The notes under the pieces: model-generated
What the model was told of the DNA's origin: nothing
What the model saw: the letters and a program-made list of their open reading frames with translations, nothing else
Databases searched by the model: none
Position numbers and translations under genes: made by a program
Shown: in pieces, positions 7,290 to 61,726 of the stretch
Layout: each line of letters starts with the position of its first letter
Numbering within the stretch: the stretch's first letter is position 1
From: Centroscyllium fabricii
Lineage: Eukaryota
NCBI GenBank assembly: GCA_051313645.2
Contig: JBNRSN020000016.1
Coordinates: 80,104,001-80,168,000, forward strand
DNA length: 64,000 nt
Reading direction: 5' to 3'

Positions 7290-7324
<35 letters not shown>

Positions 7325-20034: not shown

Positions 20035-20322
20035 TGTGGTAATCATATTACCAGTGTACATAGTTGGGTTACACCACAGACCAGTGTGTATAGTGGCTTG
20101 GTGTATTGTATGGGGTATTGTGTATAAGAACACTGTTGTGAGGTCAGGTCAGCCACACCTCTAACTCCTCCCCTCAGGTGAGAGCCTTACAGGTGAGGTC
20201 TGCCCTGCCCCCAGTCATTCTGTACTCGATGTTCAACTGGAGACTAGCGCCATCTTTAAGTTATTAAAAGCCTATAGTTAAGGTAACTACGGTACGTCAA
20301 TTTTAATAACTTAATTTTTCAA

Positions 20323-22406: not shown

Positions 22407-22636
22407 TGTGACCGAAATAACGACCTCGTGGACGAGTAGTTAGAAGGGTGAAACAAGACGGCTTTTATTCGCTAAATGGTGGACATGCACCAGCTGGTCG
22501 ACCGTCCCCAGGAATGGCTGGGGGATGGGAGACGGCCGCTTATATACCTCCTCCTGGGAGGGAGGAGTCGCGGGCGGAGCCAGCATGGGCATGTCCAGGT
22601 AATCGCACAACAGGTTATGTACAACATGAATATAGG

Positions 22637-27375: not shown

Positions 27376-30300
27376 TTACAAATTAAGTCGCTCCGGCGGC
27401 CTGGTGATCCTGGTTGAGCGTCGCACCGCTAGTGGTGTCAGCGGTCGTGGAGTGGCCGGTCGGGTTGGTTGCATCAATGGTGATGATGCCGGTTGGCGAG
27501 CGGTGGTTGATAACGTCGGTTGGTTTCTGGTTGGTGCCCTTGTAGCGACAGTAGGAGGCGCGCTCTCTCCCTCGTCGTCTGACTCTAGGGGGCGTGTACT
27601 GTGGAGCCATGCTGGAGGCCATGCCGTGCTGCCCGCAGGTGCCGGGTGGACGTACCGGGGTGCTGGGTTCTCGTGCCGGGGAGCGTACCTTGGCGCCGGT
27701 GGCCCGGGTGGAGTGGCTGGCCGCGGTGGCCCGGGTGGAGTGGCTGGCCGTCTTGGGTGCGCAGGCTGCTGGGCGGGCCTGGGTTTGGGGGCTCCCGCTG
27801 GCGCCAGGTCCTTGATGGACACGGTGTCCTCCCTCCCGTCGGGGTACGCCACGTAGGCGTACTGGGGATTGGCGTGCAGGAGGTGGACCCGTTCAACCAG
27901 GGGATCTGCCTTGTGACCCCTCACATGCTTCCGTAGTAGGACTGGCCCTGAGGATAGCAGCCACGATGGTAGCGAGGTCCCAGAAGCCGACTTCCTGGGG
28001 AAGGCAAAAAGTCGCTCGTGAGGGGTGGCATTAGTGGCCGTACACAGGAGGGACCGGATGGAGTGGAGCGCTTCAGGGAGGACGTCCTGCCAGCGGGAGA
28101 CTGGGAGGCCTTTAGACCGTAGGGCTAACAGGATGGCCTTCCAGACAGTGGCGTTTTCCCTCTCTACCTGTCCGTTCCCCCGGGGATTGTAGCTGGTAGT
28201 CCTGCTAGTCGCGATGCCTTTGGCTAGCAGAAACTGACGCAGCTCGTCACTCATAAAAGAGGCCCCCCGGTCGCTATGAATGTAGCTGGGGTAGCCGAAC
28301 AGAGAGAAGATGCTGTGGAGGGCTTTGATGACAGTGGCCGAGGTCATGTCCGGGCAGGGGATGGCGAAGGGGAAGCGGGAGTACTCGTCAATTACGTTGA
28401 GGAAGTACACGTTCCTGTTGAAGGAGGGAAGGGGTCCTTTAAAATCGACGCTGAGTCGTTCAAAGGGGCGGGTGGCCTTGATCAGGTGCGCCCGGTCTGG
28501 CCGATAGAAGTGCGGCTTGCACTCCGCACAGACCTGGCAATTGCTGGTCAGGGTCTTGACCTCCTCGATGGAGTAGGGGAGGTTGCGGGACTTCACAAAG
28601 TGAACCAACCTGGTGACCCCCGGGTGGCAGAGGTCATTGTGAAGGGTTTGGAGGCGGTCTGTCTGTGCGCTGGCACATGTACCGCGGGATAGGGCGTCTG
28701 GGGGTTCGTTAAATTTCCTGGGCCTGTACAAGATATCGCAATTGAACGCGGAGAGTTCAATTCTCCACCTTAATATCTTGTCGTTCTTGATTTTACCCCG
28801 CTCTTTGTTGTTGAACATAAAAGTGACTGAGCGTTGGTCAGTCAGCAGGGTAAATCGCTTGCCGGCCAGGTAGTGCTTCCAGTGACGCACTGCTTCAACG
28901 ATGGCTTGGGCCTCCTTCTCAACGGAAGAGTGACGGGTCTCGGGGCCCTGGAGGGTACGCGAGAAGAAGGCCACGGGTCTGCCCGCCTGGTTAAAGGTGG
29001 CGGACAGGGCAAAGTCCGTGCATCGCTCTCTACCTGAAATGGGACGGACTCGACCACGGCGTGCATCGTTGCCTTCGCAATGTCGTCCTTAATGCCGCAG
29101 AATGCCGTGCGGGCATCTGCTGACAGAGGGAATGAGGTGGATTTAAGCAGTGGGCGAGCTTTGTCTGCATAATTGGGGACCCACTGGGCATAATAGGCAA
29201 AGAAACCCAAGCACCGTTTAAGGGCCTTGGGGGAGTGGGGGAGGGGGAGCTCCATGAGGGGGCGCATGCGGTCCGGGTCGGGACCGATGACCCCATTCTC
29301 CACAACACTGCCGAGGATGGCAAGGCGGGTGGTACTGAACACACATTTTTCAGTGTTATACGTCAGATTGAGTGTTTTGGCGGTGTGGAGAAATTTCTGG
29401 AGGTTGGCGTCATGGTCCTGCTGATCGTGGCCGCAGATGGTCACGTTATCGAGGTACGGGAAAGTGGCTCGCAGCCCGTACTGATTGACCATTCGGTCCA
29501 TCTCCCTTTGGAAGACCGAGACCCCATTCGTGACGCCAAACGGAACCCTGAGGAAGTGGTAGAGGCGACCGTCAGCCTCGAAGGCAGTATAGAGACGGTC
29601 CTCTGGGCGAATGGGAAGCTGGTGATATGCGGACTTCAGATCTATGGTGGAGAACACCCGGAACTGCGCGATCTGATTCACCATGTCCGCTATCCGGGGG
29701 AGGGGGTATGCGTCTAGCTGGGTGAACCGATTGATGGTCTGACTATAGTCCACTACCATCCGGTTCTTCGCTCCGGTTTTCACCACCACTACCTGCGCCC
29801 TCCAGGGGCTATTACTGGCCTCGATAACCCCCTCCTTCAGGAGGCGCTGCACCTCGGACTTGATAAAGTCCATGTCCCCAGCACTGTAGCGCCTACTCTT
29901 GGTGGCGACGGGCTTGCAGTCTGGGGTGAGGTTGGCAAAGAGCGAGGGAGGGGCGACCTTAAGGGTCGAGAGGCCACAGGTAGCGCGCCGGGGGTGCTGC
30001 GCCGAGCACCGGTTGCTGACCGTGAGCGAGGGAAGGGGCCCACCGTACGCCATGGTAATGCTTTGGAGATGGCACTGGAAGTCCAGACCCAATAGTAATG
30101 GAGCGCAGAGCTGCGGCAGCACGAAAAAGCTAAAGTTACTAAAGTGCACGCCCTGCACCTTTAGAGCCTCTGCGCAACGCCCGGAGACGTCCGCAGATTC
30201 TGATTTGGAAGCCATTGAAATCTTTTGGCTCGCTGGCATAACCTTAAGGGAGAGGCGCTTTACTATCTCAGGATGAACAAAACTCACCGTGCTCCCACTG

Positions 30301-31355
30301 TCGAAAAGGCACACCACGTCCTGTCCGTTCACTCCCACCGGCATCATCGATTTCCCGAGTGATTGAGCCTTATTCTGGTCCAGAGTCACCGATGCCAATA
30401 TTGGATCAGACGATTCCTCTTGATCCGACGAGAAGTCCTCCGGGGCCGGTTCCCAAGATGGCTGCCACCATGCGGTGTACTGCGGAGGGGGTGGCTGGGT
30501 CCAATATGGTGACTGCTGCCACGCGGGGTGCTGAGTGGGGGATGGTTGAGTCCAATATGGCTGCCCCCATGTTCCACACGCGGCGCTGCCCGGTTTCGGT
30601 TTAGGGGCTGTGATCGCCTTACAGACTTTGGCGTAATGTCCCTTCTTTCCACATTTTGAGCAGGCCGCTTCTCTTGCCGGGCAGCTGCGTCTCGGATGCT
30701 GAGACTGCCCGCAGAAGTAACATTTTGCCGTCTTAGCATGAGCGGCTGCGATCATTTCTTCCGCCGGCCGTTGTGCCGGCGCTGTCCAAGATGGCGGGGC
30801 TGGGCCCGTATAGTTGCCGGAGTATGACGATAGGTTTAGTGAGGCCATGTCCAGCGCATTGCCCAGATCCGCTGTTGCCTGCAGGTCAAGGCCGTTCTGT
30901 TCTAACAGCCTCTGTCTGATATAGTCCGACCTGAGGCCTGTAACATATGCGTCTCTGATTAGACTGTCCACATGGATCTGGGCCGATTGCGCTCTGCAGT
31001 TACAGACCCGAGATAGCACTCTCAGCGCTCTTAAAAATTCCACGCTGGACTCACCGGGTTGCTGCTTCCTGGTGGCTAGGATGTGTCTGGCGTGGATGAT
31101 ATTGGGTGCCCGGTTGTACTCTGCCTTGAGGATCCTGATAGCATCCAAGAATGATGATGCGTCCATGATCATAGAGTACACCTGAGGGCCCACCCGGGCG
31201 TTGCGGAGCCGCCGTTTGTCCTCTTCGGTCCTGACGACCGCTGCGTTCGCTCTCAGGTACGCATCGAAACAGTCATACCAGTGCGAGAATGTGTTTGATG
31301 CGCCTGGTGTCCGGGGATCCAATTCAAACGTTGCTGGCTTGAGCACCGCGTCCAT
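27376..31355 (-). pseudogene. Element B single gag-pol ORF with one 1-nt deletion near 29019
   Basis: ORF 28842-31361 runs gag, knuckles, LFDSGS and RT (YLDN) in one frame. ORF 27376-28974 has RNase H and integrase. Confidence 0.92.
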
Positions 31356-31672
31356 CTTCAAAATTTAGCGAATAAAATTGTGACCGAAATAACGACCTCT
31401 TGGACGAGTAGTTAGAAGGGTGAAACAATACGGCTTTTATTCGCTAAATGGTGGACATGCACCAGCTAGTCGACCGTCCCCAGGAATGGCTGGGGGATGG
31501 GAGACGGCCGCTTATATACCTCCTCCTGGGAGGGAGGAGTCGCGGGCGGGGCCAGCATGGGCATGTCCAGGTAATCGCACAACAGTTTATGTACAACATG
31601 AATATAGGTACGATTACAGAGATACATAATGGGGTGGGTATGTACAAGGAAACAGTGGTTTACCACAGTATC

Positions 31673-32828: not shown

Positions 32829-35723
32829 TCAGGTCCACTTCCCTGCCCGCTCCCCGTAACCCCTAATTCCCTTGTCTGCTAAAAAACAGTCTATTTCGGT
32901 TTTAAATTTATTTAATGTTCCCGCTTCCACAGCTCCCTGAGGCAGTGAATTCCATAGATTAACCACCCTCTGGGTGAAGAAGTTTCTCCTCATCTCAGTT
33001 TTAAAAGAGCCCCCCCTTATTCTAAGACTATGCCCCCTAGTTCTAGTCTCCCCGATCATTGGAAACATCCTTGGCGCATCCACCCGATCAAGGCCCCTCA
33101 CGATCTTATACGTTTCAATAAGATCGCCTCTCATTCTTCTGAACTCTAAAGAGTAGAGTCCCAACCTACTTAACCTTTCCTCATATGTCAACCCCCTCAT
33201 CGCTGGAATTAACCGTGTAAACCTTCTCTGCACTGCCTCCAAGGCAAGTACATCCTTTCTTAAGTATGGACACCAAAACTGTACACAGTATTCCAAATGC
33301 GGTCTCACCAATACTGTGTACAGCTGCAGCAAGACCTCCCTTCTTTTATACTCTATCCCCCTAGCAATAAAGGCTAAGACTCCATTGGCCTTCCTAATCA
33401 CTTGCTGCACCTGCATACTAACTTTCTGTGATTCATGCACTAATACCCCCAAGTCCCTTTGCGTTGTATTACCACGCAGCTCCTCCCCATTTAGAAAATA
33501 ACTTGCTCTATGATTTTTTTTTCCAAAATGTATAACCTCACATTTATCAGTATTAAATTTCATCTGCCAAATTGCTGCCCAATCACCTAGCTTATCTATG
33601 TCCTTTTGCAGGCTTTTTCTGTCCTCCTCACTCCCTGCTTTTCCTCCCATTTTTGTGTCATCTGCAAACTTTGATATATTACACTTGGTCCCCTCCTCCA
33701 AATCATTTATATAGATTGTAAACAGCTGGGGTCCCAGCACCGACCCCTGCGGAACACCGCTAGTCACCGATTGCCATCCCGAGTATGAACCATTTATCCC
33801 CACTCTCTGCTTCCTGTTTGAAAGCCAATCCTCCACCCATGCTACTATATTTCCCCCAATCCCATAATTTTTTATTTTAAGCAATAGCCTCTTATGTGGC
33901 ACCTTGTCAAAAGCCTTTTGGAAGTCCAAGTATACCACATCCACCGGTTCCCCTTTATCCACCCGAGATGTTACTTCCTCAAAGAATTCGAGCAAATTAG
34001 TTAAACATGACTTCCCCTTCGTAAAACCATGCTGAGTCTGTCCGATTAAGTTATGTTTATCCAAATGCCCAGTCAGTGTTTCTTTAATAATGGTCTCTAA
34101 CATTTTAGCCACCACAGATGTTAGACTAACCGGTCTATAGTTACCAGCCTTCTGTCTACTACCCTTTTTAAATATAGGTGTTACATTAGCCATTTTCCAA
34201 TCCACCGGGACCCTTCCTGACTCCAGGGAGTTTTGGAAAATTATCACCAATGCATCTACAATCCCCACCGCTATTTCTCTCAAGACCCTAGGATGTAATC
34301 CATCAGGCCCAGGGGATTTATCCGCCTTAAGTCCCATTAATTTACCTAATACCATCTCCTTAGTGATCTTAATAGTGTTTAACTCCTCCATTCCTATAGC
34401 CCCCTGTTTGTCCAGCGTTGGAATATTTTTAATGTCTTCTACGGTAAAGACTGATACAAAATATTCGTTTAATGCTTTTGCCATCTCCATGTTCCCCACC
34501 AACAAATTCCCAGTCTCACCCTCCAATGGACCAACATTCACCTTAGCCACCCTTTTTCTTTTTATATAACTATAAAAACTCTTGCTATTAGTTTTTATGT
34601 TTTTCGCTAAATTACTTTCATACTCTATTTTCCCCTTCTTAATTAATCTCTTTGTTATTTTTTGCTGACTTTTAAATGCTTCCCAATCTTCTATCTTCCC
34701 ACTGTATCTGGCTACCTTATATACCCTTGCCTTTAGCCGAATACTATCCTTTATTACTTTACTTAGCCACGGTTGGCTGTCCTTTCCTATACCCCTTTTT
34801 TTCTTCAGTGGAATGTATTTTTCTTGAAGGTTGTACACTAACTCCTTAAAAGTACACCACTGCTCATGTACCGTCTTATTCTTTAGTCCGTTATCCCAAT
34901 CTACTTTAATCACTTCTGTTCTCATACCTTCATAATCTCCCTTGTTTAGACTAAGTACCCTGGTTTTAGTTTCGAATTGCTCCCCCTCTAGTTGAATATG
35001 GAATTCGACCATATTGTGGTCACTCGTTCCAAGAGGGTCCCTAACTATGACATTTTTAATTAATCCTGCTTCATTACACAGGACCAGATCCAAGATTGCC
35101 TCCCCCCTTGTCGGTTCAGTGACATACTGTTCTAAGAACCCATCCCTAATACACTCTATAAACTCTTCCTCTAGTCTACCCTGCCCAGTTTGATTTGCCC
35201 AGTTGATATGAAAGTTAAAGTCCCCCATGATTACAGCAGTTCCTTTATTACATGCTTCAACTATTTGCTGATTTATGTTTTGACTAACATAGTCACAACT
35301 ATTTGGAGGTCTATAGATTACACCCACTAGTGTTTTTTTCCCCTTATTATTCTCTATCTGTACCCAAGCTGTTTCACTATCCTGATCCTTTGACCCAATA
35401 TCCTTCCTTTCTATTGCAGTTATTCCATCCTTTATTAAAAAGGCCACCCCACCTCCTTTTCTTTCCTGTCTGTCTTTTCTGATTGTCAAGTAACCCTCTA
35501 TGTTTAACTCCCAGTCCTGATCACCCTGCAGCCATGTTTCCGTAATGGCCACAATATCATACCTATACGTGCTTAATTGTACCGTCAATTCATCTATCTT
35601 ATTGCGAATACTACGTGCATTCAAATAAAGCACTTTCACATGTGTTTTACTACCCTTTATTTCTGTTTTTGCCCCTTTTACGACTATACCCTTATCTTCA
35701 TACATTCTGTATCCTCCTAGCAC
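32829..35723 (-). CDS. CR1 ORF2p (APE endonuclease + reverse transcriptase)
   Basis: Open 964-aa frame: YLNARSI, ITETW, GDFN, SDH; QHGF, YLDFQKAFD, GVPQGSVLGP, FADD. The start codon is uncertain (first ATG at 35705). Confidence 0.93.
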   Translation of the reverse strand: MLGGYRMYEDKGIVVKGAKTEIKGSKTHVKVLYLNARSIRNKIDELTVQLSTYRYDIVAITETWLQGDQDWELNIEGYLTIRKDRQERKGGGVAFLIKDGITAIERKDIGSKDQDSETAWVQIENNKGKKTLVGVIYRPPNSCDYVSQNINQQIVEACNKGTAVIMGDFNFHINWANQTGQGRLEEEFIECIRDGFLEQYVTEPTRGEAILDLVLCNEAGLIKNVIVRDPLGTSDHNMVEFHIQLEGEQFETKTRVLSLNKGDYEGMRTEVIKVDWDNGLKNKTVHEQWCTFKELVYNLQEKYIPLKKKRGIGKDSQPWLSKVIKDSIRLKARVYKVARYSGKIEDWEAFKSQQKITKRLIKKGKIEYESNLAKNIKTNSKSFYSYIKRKRVAKVNVGPLEGETGNLLVGNMEMAKALNEYFVSVFTVEDIKNIPTLDKQGAIGMEELNTIKITKEMVLGKLMGLKADKSPGPDGLHPRVLREIAVGIVDALVIIFQNSLESGRVPVDWKMANVTPIFKKGSRQKAGNYRPVSLTSVVAKMLETIIKETLTGHLDKHNLIGQTQHGFTKGKSCLTNLLEFFEEVTSRVDKGEPVDVVYLDFQKAFDKVPHKRLLLKIKNYGIGGNIVAWVEDWLSNRKQRVGINGSYSGWQSVTSGVPQGSVLGPQLFTIYINDLEEGTKCNISKFADDTKMGGKAGSEEDRKSLQKDIDKLGDWAAIWQMKFNTDKCEVIHFGKKNHRASYFLNGEELRGNTTQRDLGVLVHESQKVSMQVQQVIRKANGVLAFIARGIEYKRREVLLQLYTVLVRPHLEYCVQFWCPYLRKDVLALEAVQRRFTRLIPAMRGLTYEERLSRLGLYSLEFRRMRGDLIETYKIVRGLDRVDAPRMFPMIGETRTRGHSLRIRGGSFKTEMRRNFFTQRVVNLWNSLPQGAVEAGTLNKFKTEIDCFLADKGIRGYGERAGKWT

Positions 35724-35812
35724 ACTTCGATTTTCAGATTCCCCACTGAATCCCTGCTCTAATTCATTTTCCCCAGTCGTTATTATCTCTCTTAAAACCT
35801 CCCCCCCGCTAC

Positions 35813-36766
35813 TTAGTTTAAAGACCTCTCTATTGCCCTAGTTATATGATTTGCCAGGACCCTAGTCCCAGCACGGTTCAGGTGAAGTCCGTCCCAACGG
35901 AACAGCTCCCCCCTGTCCCAGTACTGATGCCAGTGTCCCAAGAAACCAAACCCACTTTTCCCACACCAGTCTTTGAGCCACGCATTTAGCTCTCTAATTT
36001 TATTTACCCTCGCCAATTTAGCCCGTGGCTCAGGTAGTAATCCGGAGATTATTACCCTGGAGGTTCTGTTTTTTAATTTGTTCCCTAACAACTCAAACTC
36101 CCTTAACAGAACCTCTTTCCTCGTCCTTCCTATGTCGTTGGTACCGACATGGACCACGACCACTGGATCCTCCCCCTCCCACTGCAAATTTCTCTCCAGC
36201 CCAGCAGAGATGTCCTTAACCCTAGCACCGGGCAGGCAACACAGCCTTCGGGACTCCTTCTGTCGGCTACAGAGAACCCTATCTATCCCCCTAATAATAC
36301 TATCCCCTACCACTACAACATTTCCTCTAACTCCTCCCTCTTGAATGGCCCCCTGATCCACGGTGCTGTGGCCAGGTTGCTCATCCGTCCCACAGCCCCC
36401 GTTCCTGTCCTCACAGTGAGTAAGAGCCTCGATCCTGTTTGGCAAGCACAAGGGCTGTGGCTCCTGCAGCATCTCCTCCTGGATCCCCCTACCTGCCTCG
36501 CTCATGGACACACCTTCCTGTCCTTGTTCACTAACTTCAGAATTATTTAAACTGGTTGGTGTGACCATCCCCCGGCACATAATATCCAGGTAATACTCCC
36601 CCTCCCTGATGTACCGCAGCGTATGAAGCTGGGTCTCCAGCTCATCAATACGGAGCAAGAGTTCCTCTAGCCTCAAACACTTACTGCAGGTGTAGGGATC
36701 GACGGCATCAACGGTGCCTACGCATTCCCACATCTGGCAGTATTGGCACATCACCTGCTCGTCCAT
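35813..36766 (-). CDS. CR1 ORF1p (N-terminal Cys motif, coiled coil, SGNH esterase)
   Basis: CxxC..CxxC, heptads LEELLLRIDELETQL, GDSIIR, VHVGTND, DGLH. Confidence 0.92.
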   Translation of the reverse strand: MDEQVMCQYCQMWECVGTVDAVDPYTCSKCLRLEELLLRIDELETQLHTLRYIREGEYYLDIMCRGMVTPTSLNNSEVSEQGQEGVSMSEAGRGIQEEMLQEPQPLCLPNRIEALTHCEDRNGGCGTDEQPGHSTVDQGAIQEGGVRGNVVVVGDSIIRGIDRVLCSRQKESRRLCCLPGARVKDISAGLERNLQWEGEDPVVVVHVGTNDIGRTRKEVLLREFELLGNKLKNRTSRVIISGLLPEPRAKLARVNKIRELNAWLKDWCGKSGFGFLGHWHQYWDRGELFRWDGLHLNRAGTRVLANHITRAIERSLN

Positions 36767-37040
36767 CTTATATAATTAATTTTAGTTCCTAGTTAAGAAT
36801 CCTCTACACGGATTAACTATATTGAAAACACACCCCTATTTATTTAAGCTTACCACTTATAAACGGGAAAGTACTCACCCCAGCAATGAATCACCTACTA
36901 GCTTGGCTGACTGGTGGATAAATGAGTATGCTCAGCCTGTCCGGTCCACAGCTCCTCTTCAATGCGTGGTAAACCTGTGAACCTGTGAAGAAGGGAAGGA
37001 AAGGGAAAAACAGACAGAAACACAGCAGACACCAGAGAAC

Positions 37041-38783: not shown

Positions 38784-39449
38784 TACGGACACATAAAAAT
38801 GTTTTTGCACTGCTCATTGATCGGTTGTGTTCCATTCACCCCGCCGGACTCATTTTCAAAGAAGGGGTGAATGTGGTAATCATATTACCAGTGTACATAG
38901 TTGAGTTACACCACAGACCAGTGTGTATAGTGGCTGGGTGTATTGTATGGGGTATTGTGTATAAGAACACTGTCGTAAGGTCAGGTCAGCCACACCTCTA
39001 ACTCCTCCCCTCAGGTGAGAGCCTTATAGGTGAGGTCTGCCCTGCCCTGCCCCCAGTCATTCTGTACTCGATGTTCAACTGGAGACTAGCTCCATCTTTA
39101 AGTTATTAAAAGCCTATAGTTAAGGTAACTACTCGTCTTTGTATTATTGACGATACGTCAACATGCAGGGTAGGTAAATTGGAGATACTAAAAAAAAAAA
39201 TTGCCCCTGAGTATGTGTGTGAGATATAATTCTTAGAGTTGGGGGTGTCAGGGGATATGGGGAGAGGGTAGGAGGGGGGTGCTGGGGTTTGGATTATCAG
39301 CCATGATCTCGTCAAAATGGCGGAGCAGGCTCGAAGGGCCTAATGGCCGACTCCTGCTCCTATCTTCTGTGTTTCTGTGTAATCAGCCTGGCACATCTTC
39401 TTTCAGACAGTACCGCCTCAAGATTGACAATCACATATAAAGAAAAAAA

Positions 39450-46359: not shown

Positions 46360-49300
46360 TGTAGCGTGGTCGCTAACTTAATTAAAGACGACTCGTAGTT
46401 ACCGTTAATACAAGGCTTTTAATTAATAACGAATGGAGCTAATCTCCTCGGCAGATCACATACAGGAATGAAAGGGGCTGGGTCAGACCACACCTTTATA
46501 GTGCTCCCACCTGGGGGGAGGAGTCGGGGGTGTGGCTGACCTGGCTCCCAGCAGCATCTTTGCACACAGGTATACAACAATGGTAACCCATATAAGGGTT
46601 ACCCATATAAGGGTTACCACATTCACCCCTTGTTAAAAACTTTGAGTCCGGGGGGTGGGGGGTGAATGTATCGAACAGTTCGTGATAAGTCTCTCCGGCG
46701 GTCGCGTTTGTCTTGCGGACCGCCGGGGTTCCGATGTTGGTGGTGATGCCCCCATGGCCGAATAGCCCACCTTCGTCGGTGCTGTAGTTTCAGGACGTGG
46801 TGGGTTCTGCTGGACCTCGTCTGGTGCATCGGCGGGGAAACTCGGGGCCCATCTTGTGTCTGATGGTAGGTCGACCTGCTGGCCAGCAGGAGGCGCTGTG
46901 GCGGTGTTGCCGGCCGGGGCCAGGTCCCTGATGGACACGGTGTCCTCACGCCCGTCTGGGAACTGCACAAAGGCATAGTGCGGGTTGGCGTGTAGGAGCT
47001 GTACCTTGTCCACCAGGGGGTCCGTCTTGTGGCACCGAACGTGCCGCTTAAGGAACACCGGCCCAGGGGTCGTCAGCCATGGTGGGAGCGCCGTCCCCGA
47101 AGTTGACTTCCTGTTGAAAGAAAAAACAAGATCGTGCGGGGTGGTATTAGTAGCTGTACATAATAACGACCTAATAGAGTGCAGCGCGTCTGGGAGGACT
47201 GCCTGCCAATGGGACACTGGAAGGCCTCTGGACTTGAGGGCCAGGGTGACCGCCTTCCAAATGATCCCATTCTCCCTTTCTACCTGGCCATTCCCCCGGG
47301 GGTTGTAACTGGTCGTTCTGCTCGTGGCAACCCCTCTCTGGAGCAGAAACTGACGCAGTTCATCGCTCATGAACGATGACCCCCGGTCGCTATGGATGTA
47401 GCTGGGGAGACCGAAGATGGCGAACAGCGTGGTGAAGTGTTTCATCACCGTTGCACTCGTCATGTCTGGGCAGGGGAAGGCGAAGGGGAAGCGGGAGAAC
47501 TTATCCACTACCGTGAGGAAGTATGAGTTGCGGTCAGTGGAGGGGAGGGGGCCTTTGAAGTCTACGCTGAGGCGTTCAAAGGGGCGGGTGGCCTTGATGA
47601 GGTGCGCCGTGTCTGGCCGGAAAAAGTGGGGTTTGCACTCGGCGCAGACAGGGCAATCTCGGGTCATAGCCTTGATCTCCGTGATGGAGTAGGGGAGGCT
47701 ACGGGATTTGACAAAATGGGCGAGTCTGGTGACACCCGGGTGGCAGAGGCGGTCGTGGAGGTCCTTCAGCCGGTCTAGCTGGGCACTGGCGCACGTTCCC
47801 CTGGACAGTGCGTCCGGGGGTTCATTGAGTTTACCTGGTCGGTAAAGAATGTCGTACTCGTAAGTCGAGAGTTCGATCCGCCACCGCATGATCTTATCAT
47901 TCTTGATTTTACCCCGTAGTTTATTGTTAAACATAAACGCCACCGACCGTTGGTCGGTGAGCAGGGTAAAACGCTTACCGGCCAGGTAATGACGCCAGTA
48001 GCGCACGGCCTCCACAATGGCCTGGGCCTCCTTTTCCACTGCTGAGTGGCGAGTTTCGGGTCCCTGTAAGGTGCGGGAGAAAAATGCTACGGGCCTGCCT
48101 GCCTGATTCAGGGTGGCAGCAAGGGCAAAGTCCGAAGCGTCACTCTCCACCTGGAAAGGGATGGATTCATCAACAGCGAGCATGGTCGCCTTGATAATAT
48201 CTCCTTTTATCTTTTCGAATGCTGTTTGAGCTTCTATAGAAAGAGGGAAGACGGCAGCCTTGAGGAGTGGTCTAGCCTTGTCTGCGAACTGCGGGATCCA
48301 TTGTGCATAGTAGGAGAAAAATCCTAGACATCTCCTTAAGGCTTTGGGGTTGTGAGGTAAGGGCAGTTCTAGCAGGGGTCGCATACGCTGTGGGTCGGGG
48401 CCGAGGAGCCCGTTCTCCACCACGTATCCGAGGATGGCGAGCCGGGTTGTATTAAAGACACATTTGTCTTTGTTATACGTAAGGTCCAGCTTAGCCGCCG
48501 TGTCAAGGAATTTGGCCAGATTGGCATCGTGGTCCTGCTGGTCGTGGCCACAGATGGTCACGTTGTCCAGGTAAGGGAAGGTGGCCTGCAAGTCATTTTG
48601 ATCAACCATACGGTCCATCTCCCGCTGGAACACTGACACTCCGTTGGTCACGCCAAAGGGGACCCGGAGGAAGTGATAGAGCCGACCGTTCGCCTCGAAG
48701 GCGGTGTAGGGGCGGTCAGCTTTCCGGATCGGGAGCTGGTGATACGCCGATTTAAGGTCGATCGTGGAGAACACCTTGTACTGGGCGATTTGATTGACCA
48801 TTTCCGAGATGCGGGGAAGGGGGTAGGCGTCGAGCCCGGTGTAGCGGTTGATAGTCTGGCTGTAATCGATAACCAGCCGTTGTTTATCGCCAGACTTCAC
48901 CACTACAACTTGGGCGCGCCAGGGGCTGGTGCTGGCTTCAATAATCCCCTCCTTTAGCATCCGCCCGACCTCCGACCTGATAAACGTGCGGTCCCCCTCG
49001 CTGTACCGCCGACTCTTAGTGGCGATAGGTTTGTACTTCGGATCGAGGTTGGCGAACAGCGAGGGGGGATCGATTTTCAGGGTGGAGAGGCCGCAGGCCG
49101 GGGTCCGCTTTGGGAGGAGATTGTCCCGGCTACTGAGGGTGAGTGGGGGAAGGGTCCCGCCGAACTCCATTGTCACACTCCTGAAGTGGCACTGGAAGTC
49201 CAGACCTAGTAAGGCTGGGGCACACAACTGCTGGAGGGTATACAATTTAAAATTACGGTACACGCATCCCTGGATGGTGAGCGTGACGGAGCAGTAGCCG

Positions 49301-51201
49301 GTGACGTCCGCGGTGTGGGACTGTGAAGCTAATGAGACTTGGTAGTTAGTGGGCAGGACCTGCAGTCCGAAGCGCCGCACTGTATTAGGGTGGATAAAGC
49401 TCTCGGTGCTGCCCGTGTCAAAAAGGCAGTTGACCGTGTGATCGTTGATTTTGATTGGCCTTATGGAGTTAGACAGGGTGTGGGGCTTGTCCTGGCTAAC
49501 TGTAGGTCCGGTTGCCGCAGCCCCTGCTGAAGGGAGCTGCGCACAAAATGGCCGCCCCCCTGGCTTGCACATGGAGGGGCCCTGAAAACAAAATGGCCGC
49601 CCCCCTGGCTCGCACATGGAGGGGCTCTGAATACAAGATGGCCACCCCCCTGGCTCGCACGTGGAGGGGACCTGAATACAAGATGGCCGCCCCCCTGGCT
49701 CGCACATGGAGGGACCTGGGGAAGACAAGATGGCCGCCCCCTGGCTCGCACATGGAGGGACCTGGGGGAAGACAAGATTCTGTTTGTACAGAGCCCTGGC
49801 GTGCTGGCGGTGCCCGTGATCCGCACGCAGCGAACCGCGGTGAAGGCGCTGGCGGCGACCGTGGTTCGCACGCAGCTAACCGCGGTGAAGGCGCTGGCGG
49901 TGCCCGTGATTTGCACGCAGCGAACCGCGGTGAAGGCGCTGGCGGTGCCCGTGATCTGCACGCAGCGAACCACGGTGAACGCGCTAGCGGCGCCCGTGGT
50001 TCGCACGCAGCCGGCCGTGTAGGAGGGTCGCGTTCGGCTGGTCGCCGCTGCATCGAGGTGGGGGGGGGGCGCTTGCCGTCGGGATAAATTACTGCAAATG
50101 CAGCTTACCTGTTCCTGAGAGCTCTCACAGGCACTGTTGTACCTTTTTGGTGCTGCAGCTGGATTGGATCTGCAGACCTTTGAGAAGTGTCCCTTCTTGG
50201 AGCATTTGTCACAGGTCGCCGTCTTGGCTGGACACTATGCCCTGGGGTGCAATCCTTTGCCGCAAAAATAACAATGTTTATGCTTAGTGTCCGTGGTGGC
50301 TGTCGCGGCCATGGTGGGGCTCTCGATCCGTGGCGCCTGTTGGGTCGCGGCCCAAACGTTGTAAGCTTGGTAGCTGGTACCACCATACATCTGAGATTTG
50401 TTGCGGGCCCCTTCCACCGATTTTGCTAACGCGGTTGCCTCTTCAAAGGTCAGATTTTCCTTTTCCAGTAGCCTCTGACGTGCTACTGCGCATCTTAGTC
50501 CTGAGACGAAGGCGTCCCAGAGGAGGAGGTTTTCCTCCTGTATCATAGTCATTCCACCCTTACAGCCACAGGCCCGTATCATGCCCCGGAGCGCTTGCTC
50601 AAACTCGTCGTTTGACTCACCGGGTAGTTGAGGTCGGGTCGCTAGTAGGTGGCGGGCGTAGACCGTGTGCGCCGAGTGCTCGTAGTACCTCTTGAGGGTC
50701 GCCACCATTTCCACGTACGTTGTATGGTCCTCGATGAGGGTGAAAACCCTGCTGGAGATCTTGGATAGCAGTACTTGCAGTTTTTGCGCATCCGTTTCAG
50801 CCTTGGCGACTGCCATATAGGCCTCTAGCACTCTGAACCAGAGCTTGAAGGTGACCGGTGCCGCGGCATCCTGGGGGCTAATGTCCAGCTCCCGAGGCCT
50901 TACCGTGCTGCTCTCCATTGTAAAATTATTAATTAAAATTGTAGCGTGGTCGCTAACTTAATTAAAGACGACTCGTAGTTACCGTTAATACAAGGCTTTT
51001 AATTAATAAAGAATGGAGCTAATCTCCTCGGCAGATCACATACAGGAATGAAAGGGGCTGGGTCAGACCACACCTTTATAGTGCTCCCACCTGGGGGGAG
51101 GAGTCGGGGGTGTGGCTGACCTGGCTCACAGCAGCATCTTTGCACACAGGTATACAACAATGGTAACCCATATAAGGGTTACCCATATAAGGGTTACCAC
51201 A
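46360..51201 (-). mobile_element. Gypsy LTR retrotransposon C (Mag-like), young
   Basis: 262-bp LTRs at 46360-46621 and 50940-51201 with 2 mismatches. TSD AACCT (46355-46359 / 51202-51206). Confidence 0.96.
46633..50918 (-). pseudogene. Element C gag-pol: pol frame open (46633-49728), gag with TAG at 50235-50237 and two linker indels
   Basis: LFDTGS, YLDN (48562-48573), SDAS, HHCC, DDE; gag with two knuckles. Confidence 0.92.
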
Positions 51202-53400: not shown

Positions 53401-54163
53401 TATAATAGACATACAACCCGTGACAGTAGAAACTATCTCCGACTCCCGAAGCGGACCACCACGACCGGACGGACGGTTGGTTAGATGCCCAATGAGACAG
53501 CGTGGAGGTCTCGGGTCAGCGGGTCTCTGCAGCCAGTAACGGCAGCCACTTCTGTTGATTCATCCCTCGAGCTGTTGGAGGTGTTAAGCATAAGCCAGCA
53601 TTGATCCACCTCAGAGGCTAAACTTGGTCAAGGTGTTAGGCCTGAGCCAAAATTGATTTCCACCTCGAAGAAGCCTCGCTGTCTGAATCCCTCTCTCAGT
53701 CGTGTAGTTAATTCGGTGGGCTGGTGATTATCTGGTGTCAATCATCTATAATCCAATTGTGGTGTGAGAAGACATTTCTCACTGTCCCTTTCTTCATGGC
53801 TGACGAGGCCTTTCTCTTATCTTTCTGAGGAATGTTTTATGTTTCTTTAAGGACATTTTATGACTTTGCGGCTCCATTTTGTCCAGCTATGGTATCATCA
53901 CCCTATGTTGTCTTGCATTTTACGATCCTTTTATCACTTCCATTTTTCTTTCGGTGCTTGTTATTTGACCTTGCTGGCACTTCAGTCATTTGTTCCTGGC
54001 TGCATTTCAATCTCTGTTCTAAGAATCAAAATCTCATCTATGAATCTAATAACTATTTCTTACACATGGAAGCTAAGGTAGCCCCTCCTCCCAGAAGCTT
54101 TCTTTCACTGCCCGAATGAGATGAGCAGCAAGAAGCCAGATTTACAGAAGCAAATCAGACAGC

Positions 54164-54662
54164 AGCGGGACAGAGTGGGCAGGTCAGTGAGGAGTAGGCA
54201 GGAGCGGGACAGAGTGGGCAGGTCAGGGAGGAGTGAGACAGATTGGGCAGGTTAGGGAGGATTGGGCAGGTTAGGGAGGATTGGGCAGGTTAGGGAGGAT
54301 TGGGCAGGTTAGGGAGGAGTGGGCCAGAGTGGGCAGGTCAGGGAGGAATGGGCAGGAGTGGGACAGAGTGGGCAGGTCAGGGCAGGAGTGGGACAGAGTG
54401 GGCAGGTCAGGGAGGAGTGGGACAGAGTGGGCAGGTCAGGGCAGGAGTGGGACAGAGTGGGCAGGTCAGGGCAGGAGTGGGACAGAGTGGGCAGGTCAGG
54501 GCAGGAGTGGGACAGAGTGGGCAGGTCAGGGAGGAATGGGCAGGAGTGGGCAGGTCAGGGAGGAATGGGCAGGAGTGGGCAGGTCAGGGCAGGAGTGGGA
54601 CAGAGTGGGCAGGTCGGCAGGAGTGGGACAGAGTGGGCAGGTCAGGGAGGAGTGGGACAGAG
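54164..54662. repeat. G-rich variant minisatellite (GGAGTGGGACAGAGTGGGCAGGTCAGG..), left part
   Basis: Seen directly; it continues after element D. Confidence 0.9.
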
Positions 54663-57600
54663 TGTGGTGAACCATTTAGTGTAGTTCACACTGTGTTATT
54701 ATTGTATATAGTTTGGGCTAATAAAGTTGTTCTTTTCTGTAAGCACCTGGACCAGCTGACCCCGCCTCCGGGTATGAGTATAAAGGAGGATGCTCCACCC
54801 ACCTGACTCTCATTCCGGGCAGGACTCATCGCGGACCAGGTCTTGTTCTTAGCGAATAAAAGCCTTTGATTACGATCCACGAAAGACTGGCGTGATTGAT
54901 TAGCGCATCAATTTTATTCGCTAAGATTTACAATGGATGATGAGCCAGGACAGAGCCAACAGCCAGCTGCACCAGACACCTGGAGATCGATCCTCAAGCC
55001 AAAGACTCTCGACCTCAACCCCCAGGCACCGAACGCTTCGAACGACTTCGAGCACTGGCTGAGCTGCTTCGAGTCGTTTCTGGTGGTGGCCGGAGTCAGC
55101 GATACACACAAGGGACGGGTCCTAGTCTCCTGCGTCAGTGGCAGGGTCTTTGTAATCATCAAGAACGCCACTGACTATGATGCAGCGTTGGAGCTGCTGA
55201 GGGCTCGGTACCTCCAGCCTGTCAACGCCGTCTACGCTCGCCATCTACTCGCCACGCGGAGGCAACAGCCTGGTGAGTCGAACGAGGAGTACCTGGAGAC
55301 TCTTCAGGCTCTCGCTCTGTGCTGCGAATGTGCACCCGTTAACGCCCAGGAGCACATGGACCTCCTCGTCCGTGATGCCTACGTGGCAGGAATCCGATCG
55401 GCCCCAGCGCGCACCCGCCTGCTCGAGCAGGATTTTTTGTCCCTGAACCAGGCGGTGAAGCTCTCCAACGCGGTGGATGGGGCCCTCCGCAGCCTGGATT
55501 CGTACACGGGGCACGGCTCCCACACGGTTTCCCCTGGGCCTTGGGACTCACGTTTAACGCCCTCGACGGCAACCGTGGCGGCCACGGCGCCATCCGGACA
55601 GCCAGCGCCCCTGAAATGCCATTTTTGTGGCCAAAAACGCCACCCACGAAGCTCCTGCCCAGCGAAGTCGGCATCGGGCTCCAGGTGTGGCAAGAAGGGC
55701 CACTTTGCGAAGGTCTACCGATCGGCCCCGGAATCTACAAAGAAAACGGCAGCAGCCTGCAATCTCTACGCCACAGAGTGGCCTCAGGTACCTGGCGCCC
55801 CCCAACAGCATTTTTTTAAACAACTATTACCTACCTTGCCTCGGGTGCGGCCTGCCTGCGCCATTTCCCGCATTCTGCCGTCTTCCTCTTCCGACGAAAC
55901 GTGGGCGCCGTCGCCATCTTTGGGGGGCGCGGCCTTCTTCATGCCTGGAATGACGCGAACGGGCGGCAGAGGCCCCACCCCATCACGTGACGCCGCCGTC
56001 TCCCTGCGTCACGTCAGCAGCGGCCCCCCCCCCCATCACGTGCCGAAGACCGAACGGGCGGCAGAGGCCCCGCCCCGTCACGTGACGCCGCCGTCTCTCC
56101 GCGTCACGGCAGCAGCGGTTCCTCCCCATCACGTGACGCCACCTTCGGAACGCGTCACGGCATCAGCGGTCCCGCCCCATCACGTGACGATGCCATCTTG
56201 GTGCAGGACGGCCTGCATACCTACAGCGGAGGGCCCGACGCCATCTTTGTATAGGAAGATTTTTAAAGCACCGGCTGCTGCAGCAACTAGTAACTTTAAA
56301 TCAACCTCAGTGGTTCTGGCAGCTGCAACAGACTACTCCAGACCACTTCAGCATCCGGGTGCTGCTGCTGCGCCGCGAGCCCTTCGGTCTTCCCGACGGC
56401 ATTCTCGGAGACTCACCCACCGGTCCGAAACACCACCGTGGCCCGCCGTGTGCGAATCACGGGCGCCGACACCAACCGCGGACCCTGCATCGCACAAGGG
56501 CCCCAGCGTGCACACCACACTTGCCTCTACGGCCCCATAACCCATCTCTTAATTTATCAACGATGACCACCCGGGTGGAGGGGCACCTCACCTGCTGTCT
56601 GTTCGACACTCGGAGTACGGAGAGCTTTATACACCCTGATACAGTGCGCCGTTATTCCCTCAGGGTTAGGCCCACGCATCGTAAAATCTCCCTCGCCGCC
56701 GAGTCCCAGACTGTGGACGTCATCGGCTGCTGTACAGTCACCATTACCGTGAAGGGGACGACATACCGCAATTTTCCACTGTACGTCCTCCCACAGCTCT
56801 GTGCCCGTGTTGCTTGGCCTGGATTTCCAGTGCCATCTGCCGAGCTTAACGATGGCGTACGGTGGTCCCCTGCCTCCTCTCATGGTCAGCAGCCATGACT
56901 GCCCTGCCTCACAACCACACTCCTCTTGCGGTCTGTCTACCTTGAAGATAGACCCCCCCCTCGCTGTTCGCCAACCTTGACCCTGACTGCAAGCCCATTG
57001 CAACCAAGAGTCGGCGATACAGCGCGGGGGACCGCACCTTTATTAAGGCAGAGGTTGCCCGGTTGATGCGGGAGGGCATCATCGAGGCCAGTAACAGCCC
57101 GTGGCGGGCCCAGGTGGTAGTGGTTAAGTCGGGCAACAAACAGCGCATGGTCATTGACTATATTCAGACCATTAACCGCTACACTGGGCTCGACACTTAT
57201 CCGCTTCCTAGGATAAATGATAGGGTCAACCAGATTGCCCAGTATAAGGTCTTCTCCACCATCGACCTTAAGTCGGCCTATCACCAGCTCCCCATCAGAG
57301 CTGAGGACCATAAATACACTGCCTTTGAGGCAAATGGGCGCCTTTTTCACTTCCTCCGGGTCCCCTTTGGGGTTACCAATGGAGTTTCGGTCTTCCAACG
57401 GGAGATGGACCGAATGGTTGACCAGTACCATTTGCAGGCCACATTCCCGTATTTGGACAATGTCACGATCTGCGGCCATGATCAGCAAGATCACGATGCC
57501 AATTTGGACAGGTTCCTCCGTACGGCCCAGCGTCTGAATCTCACTTACAATGAGGCTAGTTGGCTATCCTCAGCTACGTAATTGAGAACGGGGTCCTCGG

Positions 57601-59643
57601 TCCTGATCCCGAACATATGCGCCCCCTTCAGGAGCTGCCTCTGCCGCACTCCTCCAAATCTTTGAGGAGATGCCTGGGGTTTTTCTCGTATTATGCACAA
57701 TGGGTTCCCCATTATGCTGATAAGGCCCGGCCTCTCCTCAGAGCTACCTCCTTCCCGCTCCCATTAGAGGCCCAAATTGCATTTTCACATATTAAGCAGG
57801 ACATCATCAAGGCAACCATGCACGCTATTGATGAGTCTCTCCCCTTCCAGGTCGAAAGCGATGCCTCAGACTTCGCCCTGGCCGCCACCCTCAACCAGGC
57901 AGGCAGGCCCGTTGCTTTCTTCTCCCGTACCCTACAGGGCCCTGAAGTCCGCCACTCTTCAGTGGAAAAGGAGACACAAGCAATAGTGGAAGCAGTGCGC
58001 CACTGGCGCCACTATTTGGCCGCTAAGCGTTTTACCCTTCTTACTGACCAGTGGTCAGTAGCGTTTATGTTCCACCATAAACAGAAGGGTAAGATCAAGA
58101 ATGACAAGATCCTCAGGTGGCGGATCGAACTCTCCGCCTTTGAGTACGCATTCTGTACCGGCCAGGGAAGCTTAATGATCCCCCGGACGCCCTGTCTCTG
58201 CCACCCGGGGGTCACCAGGCTCGTTCACTTTGTCAAAACATGCAATCTCCCTTATTCCATTGCGGAGATCAAGGCGATGACGCAGGAGTGCCCTGTCTGT
58301 GCTGAGTGCAAGCCTCAGTTTTACAGGCCTGACAGGGCGCACCTCATCAAGGCCACCCGCCCATTCGAGCGCCTGAGTGTGGACTTCAAGGGTCCCCCTC
58401 CCCTCTACCAATCGTAACTCGTACATCCTCAGTGTGGTCGACGAGTTCTCCCGTTTCCCTTTTGCATTCCCATGCACAGATATGACGAGTGCAACAGTGA
58501 TAAAGCATTTTATCACGCTATTCGCCATTTTCGGCCTTCCCGGCTTCATACACTGCGACCGGGGGTCCTCTTTTATGAGCGACGAACTGCGTCACTTTCT
58601 GCTCGCGAGGGGGGTTGCCTCGAGCAGAACAACCAGTTACAACCCCCGGGGGAATGGCCAGGTAGAGCGGTTTAATGGGACCATCTGGAAGGCCATTTCT
58701 CTGGCCCTTCGATCCAAAGGCCTTCCAACCTCCCACTGGCAGGAGGTCCTCCAGGATGCGCTCCACGCTACTCGTTCCCTTTTGTGTACAGCTACCGGTT
58801 GCACTCCTCACGAGAGACTCTTCTCTTTCCACAGGAAATCGACTTCGGGGACGTCGCTGCCGACATGGCTTACCAATCTGGGGCCGGTCCTGCTTCGTAG
58901 ACATGTCCGGGGGCACAAGACGGACCCTCTTGTTGAACGTGTGCGCCTGCTGCATGCCAACCCTCAGTACGCTTACGTGGAGTACCCAGACGGGCGTGAG
59001 GATACCGTCTCGATTAGAGACCTCGCGCCCGCTGGAGACGTTCACGGGGAGTTGTTGGCGGAGCCCTTGCCCTCCCAGGTCGCACTTCCACAACAGGGGC
59101 CTACTTTTCATTCACCGGCGCACATTACATCGGGGCCCTTGCCACCTACAATGCACGACGGAGTTCATCACGTTGCTCAACCTCCGGCGGCTGCTACACC
59201 TCCACCAGATCTTCCTGCGTATGAACCTACTCTTCCACCGGTGGAGTCCCTGTGCACTTCGGGAGCTCCGTCAGCATCTTTTCCGATTGCGACTACTCCC
59301 GCTTTTTCTTGTGAATCGCCATTGCTTCGCAGGTCTTCTCGGTCTGTTCGACCTCCTCAAAGACTGATAACGCAGTGCTGATGTTCGCCCCGCGGGACTT
59401 GTTTTTTAAGGAAGGGGTGAATGTGGTGAACCATTTAGTGTAGTTCACACTGTGTTATTATTGTATATAGTTTGTGCTAATAAAGTTGTTCCTTTCTGTA
59501 AGCACCTGGACCAGCTGACCCCGCCTCCGGGTATGAGTATAAAGGAGGATGCTCCACCCACCTGACTCTCATTCCGGGCAGGACTCATCGTGGACCAGGT
59601 CTTGTTCTTAGCGAATAAAAGCCTTTGATTACGATCCACGAAA
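54663..59643 (+). mobile_element. Gypsy LTR retrotransposon D (Mag-like), end of the 3' LTR deleted
   Basis: LTRs 54663-54910 and 59422-59643 (last ~25 nt and right TSD missing). PPT AAGGAAGGGGTGAA. Confidence 0.93.
54933..59381 (+). pseudogene. Element D gag-pol with multiple frameshifts
   Basis: gag 54933-56540, LFDTRS, YLDN (57450-57461), RNase H and integrase 58377-59381. Confidence 0.9.
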
Positions 59644-59985
59644 TCAGGGCAGGTCAGGGAGGAGTGGGACAGAGTGGGCAGGTTAGGGAGGATTGGGCAG
59701 GAGTGGGACAGAGTGGGCAGGTCAGGGAGAAATGGGCCGGAGTGGGCCAGAGTGGGCAGGTCAGGGAGGAATGGGCCGGAGTGGGCAGGTCAGGGAGGGA
59801 TGGGCCAGAGTGGGCAGGTCAGGGAGGAATGGGACAGAGTGGGCAGGTTAGGGAGGATTGGGCAGGAGTGGGCCAGAGTGGGCAGGTCAGGGAGGAATGG
59901 GCCGGAGTGGGACAGAGTGGGCAGGTCAGGGAGGAATGGGCCGGAGTGGGCCAGAGTGGGCAGGTCAGGGAGGAGTGGGACAGAG
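59644..59985. repeat. G-rich variant minisatellite, right part
   Basis: Seen directly. Confidence 0.9.
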
Positions 59986-61726
59986 GAGCAGACAGAATTG
60001 GATACCTGAACTGCTGCCGTTCCATGATGTCCGAGCAGCTGGGTGGTAGGAGTGCGGTAACTTGACATCTGCGGGAAGATCGACAACCATGGGTGATGGT
60101 AGGTAACATTCAGTAAACAGGTTATTGAAATAATAGCAAACTAAATTTCAAACATCCATGAAATCTAAAACAAACAAGTTGAAGTCCTGTGATTACAGCT
60201 GCTGTTCCAATATCAGTTATCTTGTTTTTACAGAGACTAAATGGTAAATATTTAGGCAGGCACTGGGTAGCTATTTACTGAACAGGTGGAGACTTGAGTC
60301 TAGTCTGCAGTCGACACTCATTTAATAAGTATAAAATGTCTTGAAACTTTAAAGTTATTTACTTCAAAGTTGCACCTTTTATCATTTTAAAACTCTCAAT
60401 AAAGAAATTATTTAAAAGCAAACTCAGCAAACTCTTTATTCAACAGGTAAACCTTTGTGAAGAGTGAGGCATGGTAATTGAATGATTTTACCAGCATTAG
60501 CCATTTGAAATAATTCTTCCCCTTTCAGAACAGGCATGTCATGGTCTGTAAATTTTAGTGGTGAATAATATCATAAAGCAGAAATGCACAGGACCAAAAA
60601 TGCACTTAATGTGCAGTGTTGTTTATATTAGTGTAACTAAATAATTGAAGTTTCCTTTTAATTTTGAGTTCAGTGGTGAACTATGACTTTAATCCTGAAA
60701 TGAATTGAAGGAATATCAGGAGGGCAGCAGTCCAAAATATTATCACCTGATTACCTTTGATCTGTTACTTTCACTCTCTGTACTGTAACAAAGGTCCTAC
60801 AGCAAAGCTAGAGGGTAGATGCATTTTGTAATGATATTGTTGAAGCAATCGAGACATAGTCTCATCATAGGCTAGACACTTCTGTACAAGATAAATGAAA
60901 CACTTGGAAAGAATAATGCTGAACGTGTACATACCCATGTTCAGCAAGCTCAGACTAAACAAGCTTAGCCCAAAATGGATTAACAAACAAATTAAAAGTG
61001 AAATAAAGAGGGAAATAACCTCTACAAATCCTGCAGGGAGAAAGAGAAACAGCTAACTGGAATGAACACAAGGCCGTTCAAAGTACATTACAGGGGTGAT
61101 GAGAGGCAAGACAGAGCTAGAAGACAGCATCGTTGCAGAGGCAAAACATAATAATAAAAATGTTTCAGTATTATAATAGCAAGAGGACTATCAGAGATGA
61201 GAACTTAAAATATGCACATGCGGTTAAGCATAAGGGAAAACATTAACAATGTGCCCTCCCCAAAATAAAGGAGTACCAAGGCTAAATTCAGGACTTTGAT
61301 ATAAAGATGGCGGCAGTCCTAGACATGCTGAAAAGCTTAACACAAATAAATCCCTGGGAATAGATGGTATTTATCCCAGACTGCTGAGAAATTTGCAAGG
61401 CACTGACAATCATTATGAGGGAGCATTGAACACAGGGGGAGTACCATTGGAAATAGCCAAGAATTAAGGGGCCCTTCACAATTTTCAACATTTTCACAAG
61501 TGTACAAAGAGTACTCTTTTTTGCTACCCCCTCCCTCCCCCCTGGAAGTGTACACCAAAAATGTTGATTGACGGCGGGATTTCAATCGACATTTGCTTAT
61601 CTTCAGTAACTACTTGTGACAATGAATGCCACACTCTAATAGTCTTCTGCCACAATAATTTCCTTTTAACTTGCCTCTTTAAACTTCTTGTACTAATCCT
61701 AAATTCCAATCTACTTGTTATGAATT

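Follow-up and report, generated by a model that had tools for sequence, protein, structure and literature searches.

Tf1 primes reverse transcription with the first 11 bases of its own RNA, after a cut by RNase H (PMC7175516), and Tf1-type self-priming has been implicated from fungi to vertebrates (PMC4600332). Self-priming has also been predicted for the Tcn1 chromoviruses and for the plant TAR elements (Houba and Osr-1) of the Ty1/copia superfamily, with a complement of at least 10 bp located 0-5 nt behind the LTR (PMC6317226). Self-priming itself is already known, from Tf1/sushi, Tcn1, and TAR.

We analyzed a window of 64,000 nt (the whole stretch of DNA under study) from Centroscyllium fabricii. 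[quoted passage not shown] A fifth element, E, is of another kind. The main features are:

20035..20299, + strand: 5' LTR of A (arm at 20256-20269; 5-bp target duplication)
20301..20314, + strand: PBS-position sequence of A (gag ATG at 20323)
22636-27256, + strand: element E, within the 3' LTR of B (gag motif C-x2-H-x9-C-x3-C; TGG primer site; YLDD reverse transcriptase)
31363..31377, - strand: PBS-position sequence of B (gag ATG at 31355)
31379..31667, - strand: 5' LTR of B (arm at 31435-31449; 5-bp target duplication)
46636..49875, - strand: pol frame of C, with protease, reverse transcriptase (RT; YLDN), RNase H, and integrase, and no match to a chromodomain or SH3_Tf2-1
50926..50938, - strand: PBS-position sequence of C (gag ATG at 50918)
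50940..51201, - strand: 5' LTR of C (arm at 50997-51009; 3' LTR at 46360-46621; 5-bp target duplication)
54663..54910, + strand: 5' LTR of D, TG...CA, 98% identical to the 3' copy
54779..54784, + strand: predicted TATA box of D, with spacing that is conserved in the family sample
54810..54815, + strand: initiator-like motif of D (predicted RNA start at 54812)
54847..54861, + strand: LTR arm of D (13-nt core at 54849-54861, with AATAAA; proposed 3' end of the self-primer at 54861)
54862..54911, + strand: loop of D, with the remaining R, U5, the CA end, and a 1-nt spacer (putative template of minus strong-stop DNA)
54912..54926, + strand: PBS-position sequence of D (13-nt core at 54912-54924, complement of the arm)
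54933..59381, + strand: gag-pol of D, disrupted into several frames (RT motif YLDN)
59410..59643, + strand: polypurine tract of D (59410-59421) and truncated 3' LTR

The LTR boundaries of A, B, and C were set by the 5-bp target duplications. The 3' LTR of D is truncated at about 59643, so the end of its LTR was taken from family members. (A G-rich tandem repeat, at 54109-54664 and 59644-60015, encloses D and has either supplanted the end of D's 3' LTR or eliminated it.) B lies within A, the 3' LTR of B is interrupted by E (which we take to be CsRn1-like), and the U5 of A's 5' LTR is shorter than that of its 3' LTR (38872-39160). The window also contains a DDE_Tnp_4 (Harbinger-like) frame at 5940-7346 (+ strand) and a LINE with an esterase-like ORF1 (32829-36775, - strand) that was inserted into A. 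We found no tRNA genes within the window.

An earlier reading of this DNA from its letters alone had proposed that A-D have no tRNA primer site and instead carry a perfect complement of part of their own LTR. All four arms and PBS-position sequences are indeed exact reverse complements. None of A-D has TGG behind the 5' LTR, and E has CA-G-TGG. More broadly, a tRNA-type PBS (which starts with TGG and is complementary to the 3' end of a tRNA) is present in E and absent from the lineage of A-D, where the LTR complement takes its place; this argues against a tRNA primer, as had been claimed. In each of A-D, the 5' LTR ends in CA and is followed by one A, by the PBS-position sequence, and then, 6-8 nt further on, by the gag ATG. 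The spacing from the TATA box to the arm is 61-65 nt in B, C, and D, in agreement with the earlier reading. In a chance test for A and D only, a 13-mer complement was found in 0 of 20,000 shuffled LTRs.

A genome-wide search pattern that fixed only 5 of the pairs, and left pairs 6-13 free, found 242,980 matches to the arm/PBS geometry in the 7.2-Gb genome, versus 94 matches for a reversed control. As a sample for covariation, we used the first 100 matches listed, which are consecutive. Pairs 6-13 were Watson-Crick in 99, 98, 90, 98, 95, 98, 97, and 97 of these 100 copies, respectively, as compared to 29-98 if partners were shuffled, and 76 copies were perfect over all 13 pairs. Just 9 of the 800 cells (pairs 6-13 in 100 copies) were G-U, and all but one of these appear to be of the type expected from C-to-T decay. 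Double transversions were common among the changes in arm and PBS. At pair 14, 41 of 100 copies were Watson-Crick, versus 31 with shuffled partners. In other words, of the 13-15 bp that had been given for the duplex, 13 bp are conserved, and pairs 14-15 are near background in this genome.

For the most variable pair (pair 8), among copies with one type of arm, 15,258 match and 171 do not, so 98.9% match in cis. This mismatch rate is close to the decay after insertion, with a median LTR-LTR identity of 97.6% (from the 73 of 100 copies with a second LTR, some of which belong to other elements). In the sample, pair 8 seemed to have too many mismatched PBSs, a lead that was discarded because the surplus is gone genome-wide (1.1%). 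On a tree of gag from 72 of the 79 A-type copies (7 long branches were removed), mirrored changes occurred 7, 9, 5, and 4 times at pairs 8, 9, 12, and 13, which is as frequent as changes in the fastest codon frame of gag (mean of 6.25), but because kin share states, this is a rough rate and not a test. Private double changes gave 103 matches, nearly all from one family. At one locus (L204), a rare arm variant is common to the 5' LTR and the PBS and is absent from the 3' LTR, which the standard copying path does not explain.

Could a host RNA be the primer instead? Half of a host tRNA, or another small RNA, might prime, and the match to the LTR would then be incidental. Half-tRNA primers do exist in copia lineages (PMC6317226). 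But we found 44 distinct perfect 13-mers, each of which follows its own LTR in cis, and Rfam gave no match above the gathering score in D's region. We consider a host primer to be extremely improbable.

The pairing is also found in relatives from other DNA. A search with an alignment of gag identified 80 metagenome loci (the best of 180) and 2 MAG loci, and after we left out 7 loci that lack upstream DNA, 75 relatives were scored. At least 12 of the 13 pairs were present in 59 of the 75, and all 13 pairs in 49 of the 75, and none of 225 shuffles reached 12 pairs. The remaining 16 relatives are decayed copies or lack an LTR. One arm lies 24-72 nt upstream, within the LTR. We also sorted relatives into 27 groups, which were selected for having at least 12 pairs and are hence biased; in these groups, G-U is absent from pairs 1-13, and the edge at 13 bp is softer than in our genome, with pairs 14 and 15 being Watson-Crick in 21 and 19 of the 27 groups. 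Taken together, the sample from this genome and the metagenome relatives bear out the claim that the covariation is real and that pairing is kept across copies. Two lineage members (L142 and L143) are in contigs that were filed as bacterial MAGs, and these are most likely animal DNA in the bins. Viral contigs gave no match with one protein and one weak match (L061) with the alignment, and matches in a protein cluster atlas were to generic gag clusters only.

The domain order of A-D (protease, RT, RNase H, integrase), their TG...CA LTRs, polypurine tract, and short target duplication are those of Ty3/Gypsy elements (Metaviridae), and the best solved relative is Ty3 Gag-Pol (E = 3.5e-58). On a tree of 121 RT-RNase H sequences (from FastTree, midpoint-rooted, with unnamed outgroups, and with element E dropped by the coverage filter), 64 lineage members were apart from all other matches, with SH-like support of 1.0. 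We found no chromodomain or SH3_Tf2-1 in the frames of the window, in any of 8 lineage proteins, or in the domain lists of 120 homologs. Overall, A-D belong to a deep, chromodomain-less lineage of Ty3/Gypsy elements. Its named homologs (compared as proteins) include those from rays and sharks, which are the closest, and from Actinostola, Mytilus, and Trichuris. The lineage's LTRs are about 250-290 bp and its proteins are mostly 1,170-1,290 amino acids. Short LTRs, a single ORF, and two CCHC knuckles are present in the lineage, and these are not diagnostic for the Cigr-1 clade or Mag.

The RT motif is YxDN, with a natural asparagine in place of the second aspartate of the catalytic motif, in B (28845-31364, - strand), C (46636-49875, - strand), D (56952-57578), and 88 of 120 homologs. 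In Ty3, the equivalent change (D214N) keeps polymerase activity, lowers processivity, and blocks transposition (PMC5371799). Our literature search found no retrotransposon paper on YLDN.

The position of the arm within the RNA bears on how it might prime. Of the 100 copies, 80 carry a TATA-like motif 67-73 nt upstream of the arm, and in most an initiator-like motif follows the TATA by 26-33 nt and precedes the arm by 36-44 nt. At cap distance, no copy (0 of 100) has such a TATA-like motif. Four sets of contigs that we compared showed neither a start nor an end of the RNA. Judging from the motifs, the arm probably lies within the transcript rather than at its cap, as the sequence-only reading had proposed. 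Alternatively, these could be ordinary Tf1-type elements, whose packaged RNA starts at the arm or within a few bases of it, so that its first 13 or so bases would serve as the primer. A sharp edge at 13 bp is expected of a defined RNA 5' end; the arms of most families begin with an initiator-like Y-N-A-G-Y; and Tf2 uses alternative starts (PMC5341516). Indeed, in several families the 5' part of the arm is initiator-like and might serve as a second start. Besides the TATA-like motifs, the first base of the arm argues against this alternative, as it is T in 82 of 100 copies, and so do the by-products that we describe below.

Several loci (L083, L086, L091, L096, L116, L126, L128, L129, L143) have a pyrimidine-rich tract and an AG 5-56 nt upstream of the arm, which resemble a splice or trans-splice acceptor; just 3 of the 27 groups passed a strict splice-acceptor rule there. 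A conserved U5 stem of the Tf1 type was absent: the mean z-score for folding of the loop was -1.0 for 30 copies from this genome and 0.0 for the 27 outside groups. Single-sequence folding over 125-150 nt gave weak z-scores (-0.7 to -2.7). We also tried a second helix, between the leader and the start of gag, which we do not propose: in the large A-type group, the copy's own pairing beat the cross-family pairing in 17 of 76 cases, with no gain over the cross-family or U3 controls, and the B-type copies were somewhat better, with own over cross-family in 9 of 12 cases.

The arm contains the poly(A) hexamer in 99 of 100 copies from this genome and in 21 of the 27 outside groups. Because the arm usually holds the hexamer and the duplex is possible only at the 5' LTR, the duplex might also dampen premature polyadenylation, and we see roughly an even chance of this second role. 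It could even be the only role: the duplex would do no more than conceal the poly(A) signal of the 5' LTR, perhaps along with the region of the start codon, and priming would occur by an unseen route. However, the other 6 of the 27 groups, whose arms lack AATAAA or ATTAAA, keep the duplex with the same length and register. Furthermore, there are almost no G-U pairs or bulges, the distance to the LTR end is fixed at 1 nt, no other primer site is visible, and the fold-back products (below) require a DNA 3' end inside the PBS-position sequence. We consider masking alone to be very unlikely. Of the earlier suggestion that the pairing hides the poly(A) signal, a plausible second role is left, and the 6 groups without a hexamer speak against a main role. 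(One copy with a poly(A) end 15-17 nt behind the arm was taken for a retrocopy, but it is actually a provirus with a later 3' LTR insertion, so it does not give a cleavage site.)

In 1 of the 100 copies, a perfect palindrome of 242 bp runs from the LTR through the PBS into inverted copies of the arm, leader, and U3. The PBS is continued as an inverted copy of the element's own leader in 670 copies, as compared to 0 for the control, and at least 273 full palindromes, in A-type families, extend to the LTR start. For example:

L173 (G000:C1:732709, - strand), L262, and L263: palindromic mini-elements with the order U3, leader, arm, U5, PBS, inverted arm, leader, U3

All three of the full palindromes that we inspected end in TG/CA and are flanked on each side by a 5-bp duplication, which implies that the palindromes formed before integration. 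Among 7 copies sampled from the 670, 2 were full with duplications, 1 was one-sided, and 4 were partial. The 4 partial copies stop at 37, 41, 41, and 49 nt, and the predicted start is at 51-53. The palindromes may be plus-strand strong-stop DNA whose 3' end, with the PBS sequence, folded onto its own arm. Such fold-back products tie the pairing to priming, beyond RNA regulation alone, and so lend support to the priming role that the sequence-only reading had proposed.

Other copies rejoin the start of gag. Across four gap windows, with gaps of up to 137 nt, we found 11, 3, 0, and 1 rows. Among 14 independent events, whose stop positions were read by eye from the listings and which are few, 5 stop at the initiator (+1/-1), 1 is within 4 nt of it, 7 stop earlier, and 1 is about 13 nt beyond. 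These stops fit read-through along a primer that comprises the capped leader and the arm. But 2 of the 5 initiator stops lie on 4-nt microhomology with the gag start, and others on 2-3 nt. DNA that folds back and switches template could thus yield the same pile-up, and microhomology can explain at least two of the five. That stops gather at the upstream initiator counts against an RNA start at the arm, and overall we consider the ordinary Tf1-type explanation unlikely.

The stops also bear on whether another R copy supplies the primer. This could be the 3' end of the RNA (which would be circularised), or else short 5' LTR transcripts, from cap to poly(A) site, that are trimmed as far as the duplex and pair in trans. 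In favor of this, the arm is upstream of the poly(A) site and hence at both RNA ends, and 13 of the 73 copies with two LTRs have a PBS that matches neither LTR arm. A short 5' transcript would also predict the same read-through stops as our preferred explanation. However, if the RNA 3' end were the primer, read-through should extend deep into U3 before gag is rejoined, and 13 of the 14 events end no further than the predicted 5' start. This weighs against RNA 3'-end priming with circularisation as the main route, which the sequence-only reading had put forward. Free exchange in trans is hard to reconcile with the cis matching at pair 8, given the many co-existing variants. We consider a primer from another R copy to be quite unlikely.

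Across the lineage, a strictly Watson-Crick duplex of 13 bp is possible between the LTR arm and a primer site that a single nucleotide separates from the 5' LTR. This structure is lineage-wide and almost certainly serves in priming, and self-priming of some form is very likely. Our preferred explanation, which we consider probable but far from assured, is Tf1-like self-priming from an internal arm near the 5' end of an RNA whose start is predicted. The RNA would start about 40 nt upstream of the arm, and the arm/PBS duplex would form at its 5' end. The RNase H domain would cleave just behind the arm, as in Tf1, and RT would extend the cut end through U5 and the remaining R. The strong-stop DNA would then jump to the RNA 3' end via a short overlap between the cut site and the poly(A) site. 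The primer would be the cap, leader, and arm, rather than the first bases of the RNA. If plus-strand DNA copies about 13 nt of this primer, then the primer site would be rewritten from the arm, which would explain the gap-free covariation.

The two active sites of Ty3 RT lie about 13 bp apart, and the enzyme copies 12 nt of the Ty3 primer (PMC5371799). The 13-bp duplex seems to match this spacing, by cause or by coincidence. In Ty3, however, the primer is not what perpetuates the PBS (PMC5371799), so a Gypsy element does not necessarily rewrite its primer site. We propose only tentatively, and with less than even confidence, that all of this makes up an undescribed and independently evolved system, in a lineage that is among the most successful Gypsy elements of animals, with an internal 13-bp duplex sized by the RT ruler, a capped-leader primer, poly(A) masking, rewriting in each cycle, palindromic by-products with two U3s, and a YxDN RT. 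Novelty is likeliest for the internal primer, for the overlap with the poly(A) signal, for the YxDN enzyme, and for the palindromic by-products.

If this explanation is correct, then tRNA-free priming, as seen in chromoviruses and a few copia lineages, would also occur in a lineage that is not chromoviral, whose hosts (going by the named homologs) include sharks, rays, a sea anemone, a mussel, and a whipworm. This genome has about 243,000 5' junctions, or very roughly of order 1 Gb of sequence if most of these elements are full length. The lineage would be independent of host tRNA and would not offer a target site for silencing by tRNA fragments. A primer that is cut from inside the RNA would loosen the rule, from Tf1, of a primer taken from the cap end. 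The overlap of the arm with the poly(A) hexamer would let one structure address two problems of LTRs. The palindromic by-products would be a genomic record of reverse-transcription intermediates that could be mined in any assembly. For annotators, self-priming would explain why such elements are called PBS-less.

Among known systems, the Tf1/sushi chromoviruses, including Tf1 and Tf2 of Schizosaccharomyces pombe and Tj1, are alike in having a PBS that is complementary to their own LTR, with no tRNA, and cut-and-extend is the model for their priming (PMC7175516, PMC4600332, PMC5341516). A single gag-pol frame is also shared. In contrast to Tf1/sushi, our lineage lacks the chromodomain and SH3_Tf2-1, the poly(A) hexamer usually falls in its arm, and its RT is mostly YxDN. 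It also lacks a conserved U5 stem; in the Tf1/sushi group, a U5-IR stem lies beside the primer duplex. The complement in our lineage is also at least 10 bp and 0-5 nt behind the LTR, as for Tcn1 and TAR (PMC6317226). Those are from another superfamily or from a chromoviral clade, and from plant hosts, so our lineage would be a further, and probably independent, case from animals.

For Cigr-1 of Ciona intestinalis, LTRs of roughly 245 bp and a single ORF of roughly 3.6 kb are reported. By this description, its anatomy resembles that of our lineage. The Cigr-1 clade is also reported from molluscs and annelids (PMC6238403, PMC8556966) and has been placed under Mag (PMC6238403, supplement 1). Given this likeness, it is a real possibility, although not the likelier one, that the lineage has been named already and its primer site perhaps noted. 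Outside of Repbase, GyDB, and the original Cigr-1 paper, our literature searches (which took in PMC3601003, PMC6934838, PMC5445492, PMC2864245, PMC5341516, PMC8556966, and PMC6238403) found no account of such a structure in an animal lineage that is not chromoviral.

The Conserved Hairpin Site of fungal GalEa copia elements and biv-TRIM are PBS-less and have an inverted repeat at the PBS position (PMC5445492, PMC6934838). They differ in that both arms are downstream of the LTR, pair over 9-10 bp, and keep a mismatch (PMC5445492, PMC6934838), whereas our lineage has one arm inside the LTR. Finally, the poly(A) hairpin of HIV-1, a retrovirus, is similar in that it conceals the hexamer of the 5' LTR by base pairing. 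That hairpin is wholly in R/U5 and forms at both ends of the RNA. In our lineage, by contrast, the partner is the PBS, which is present only at the 5' end.
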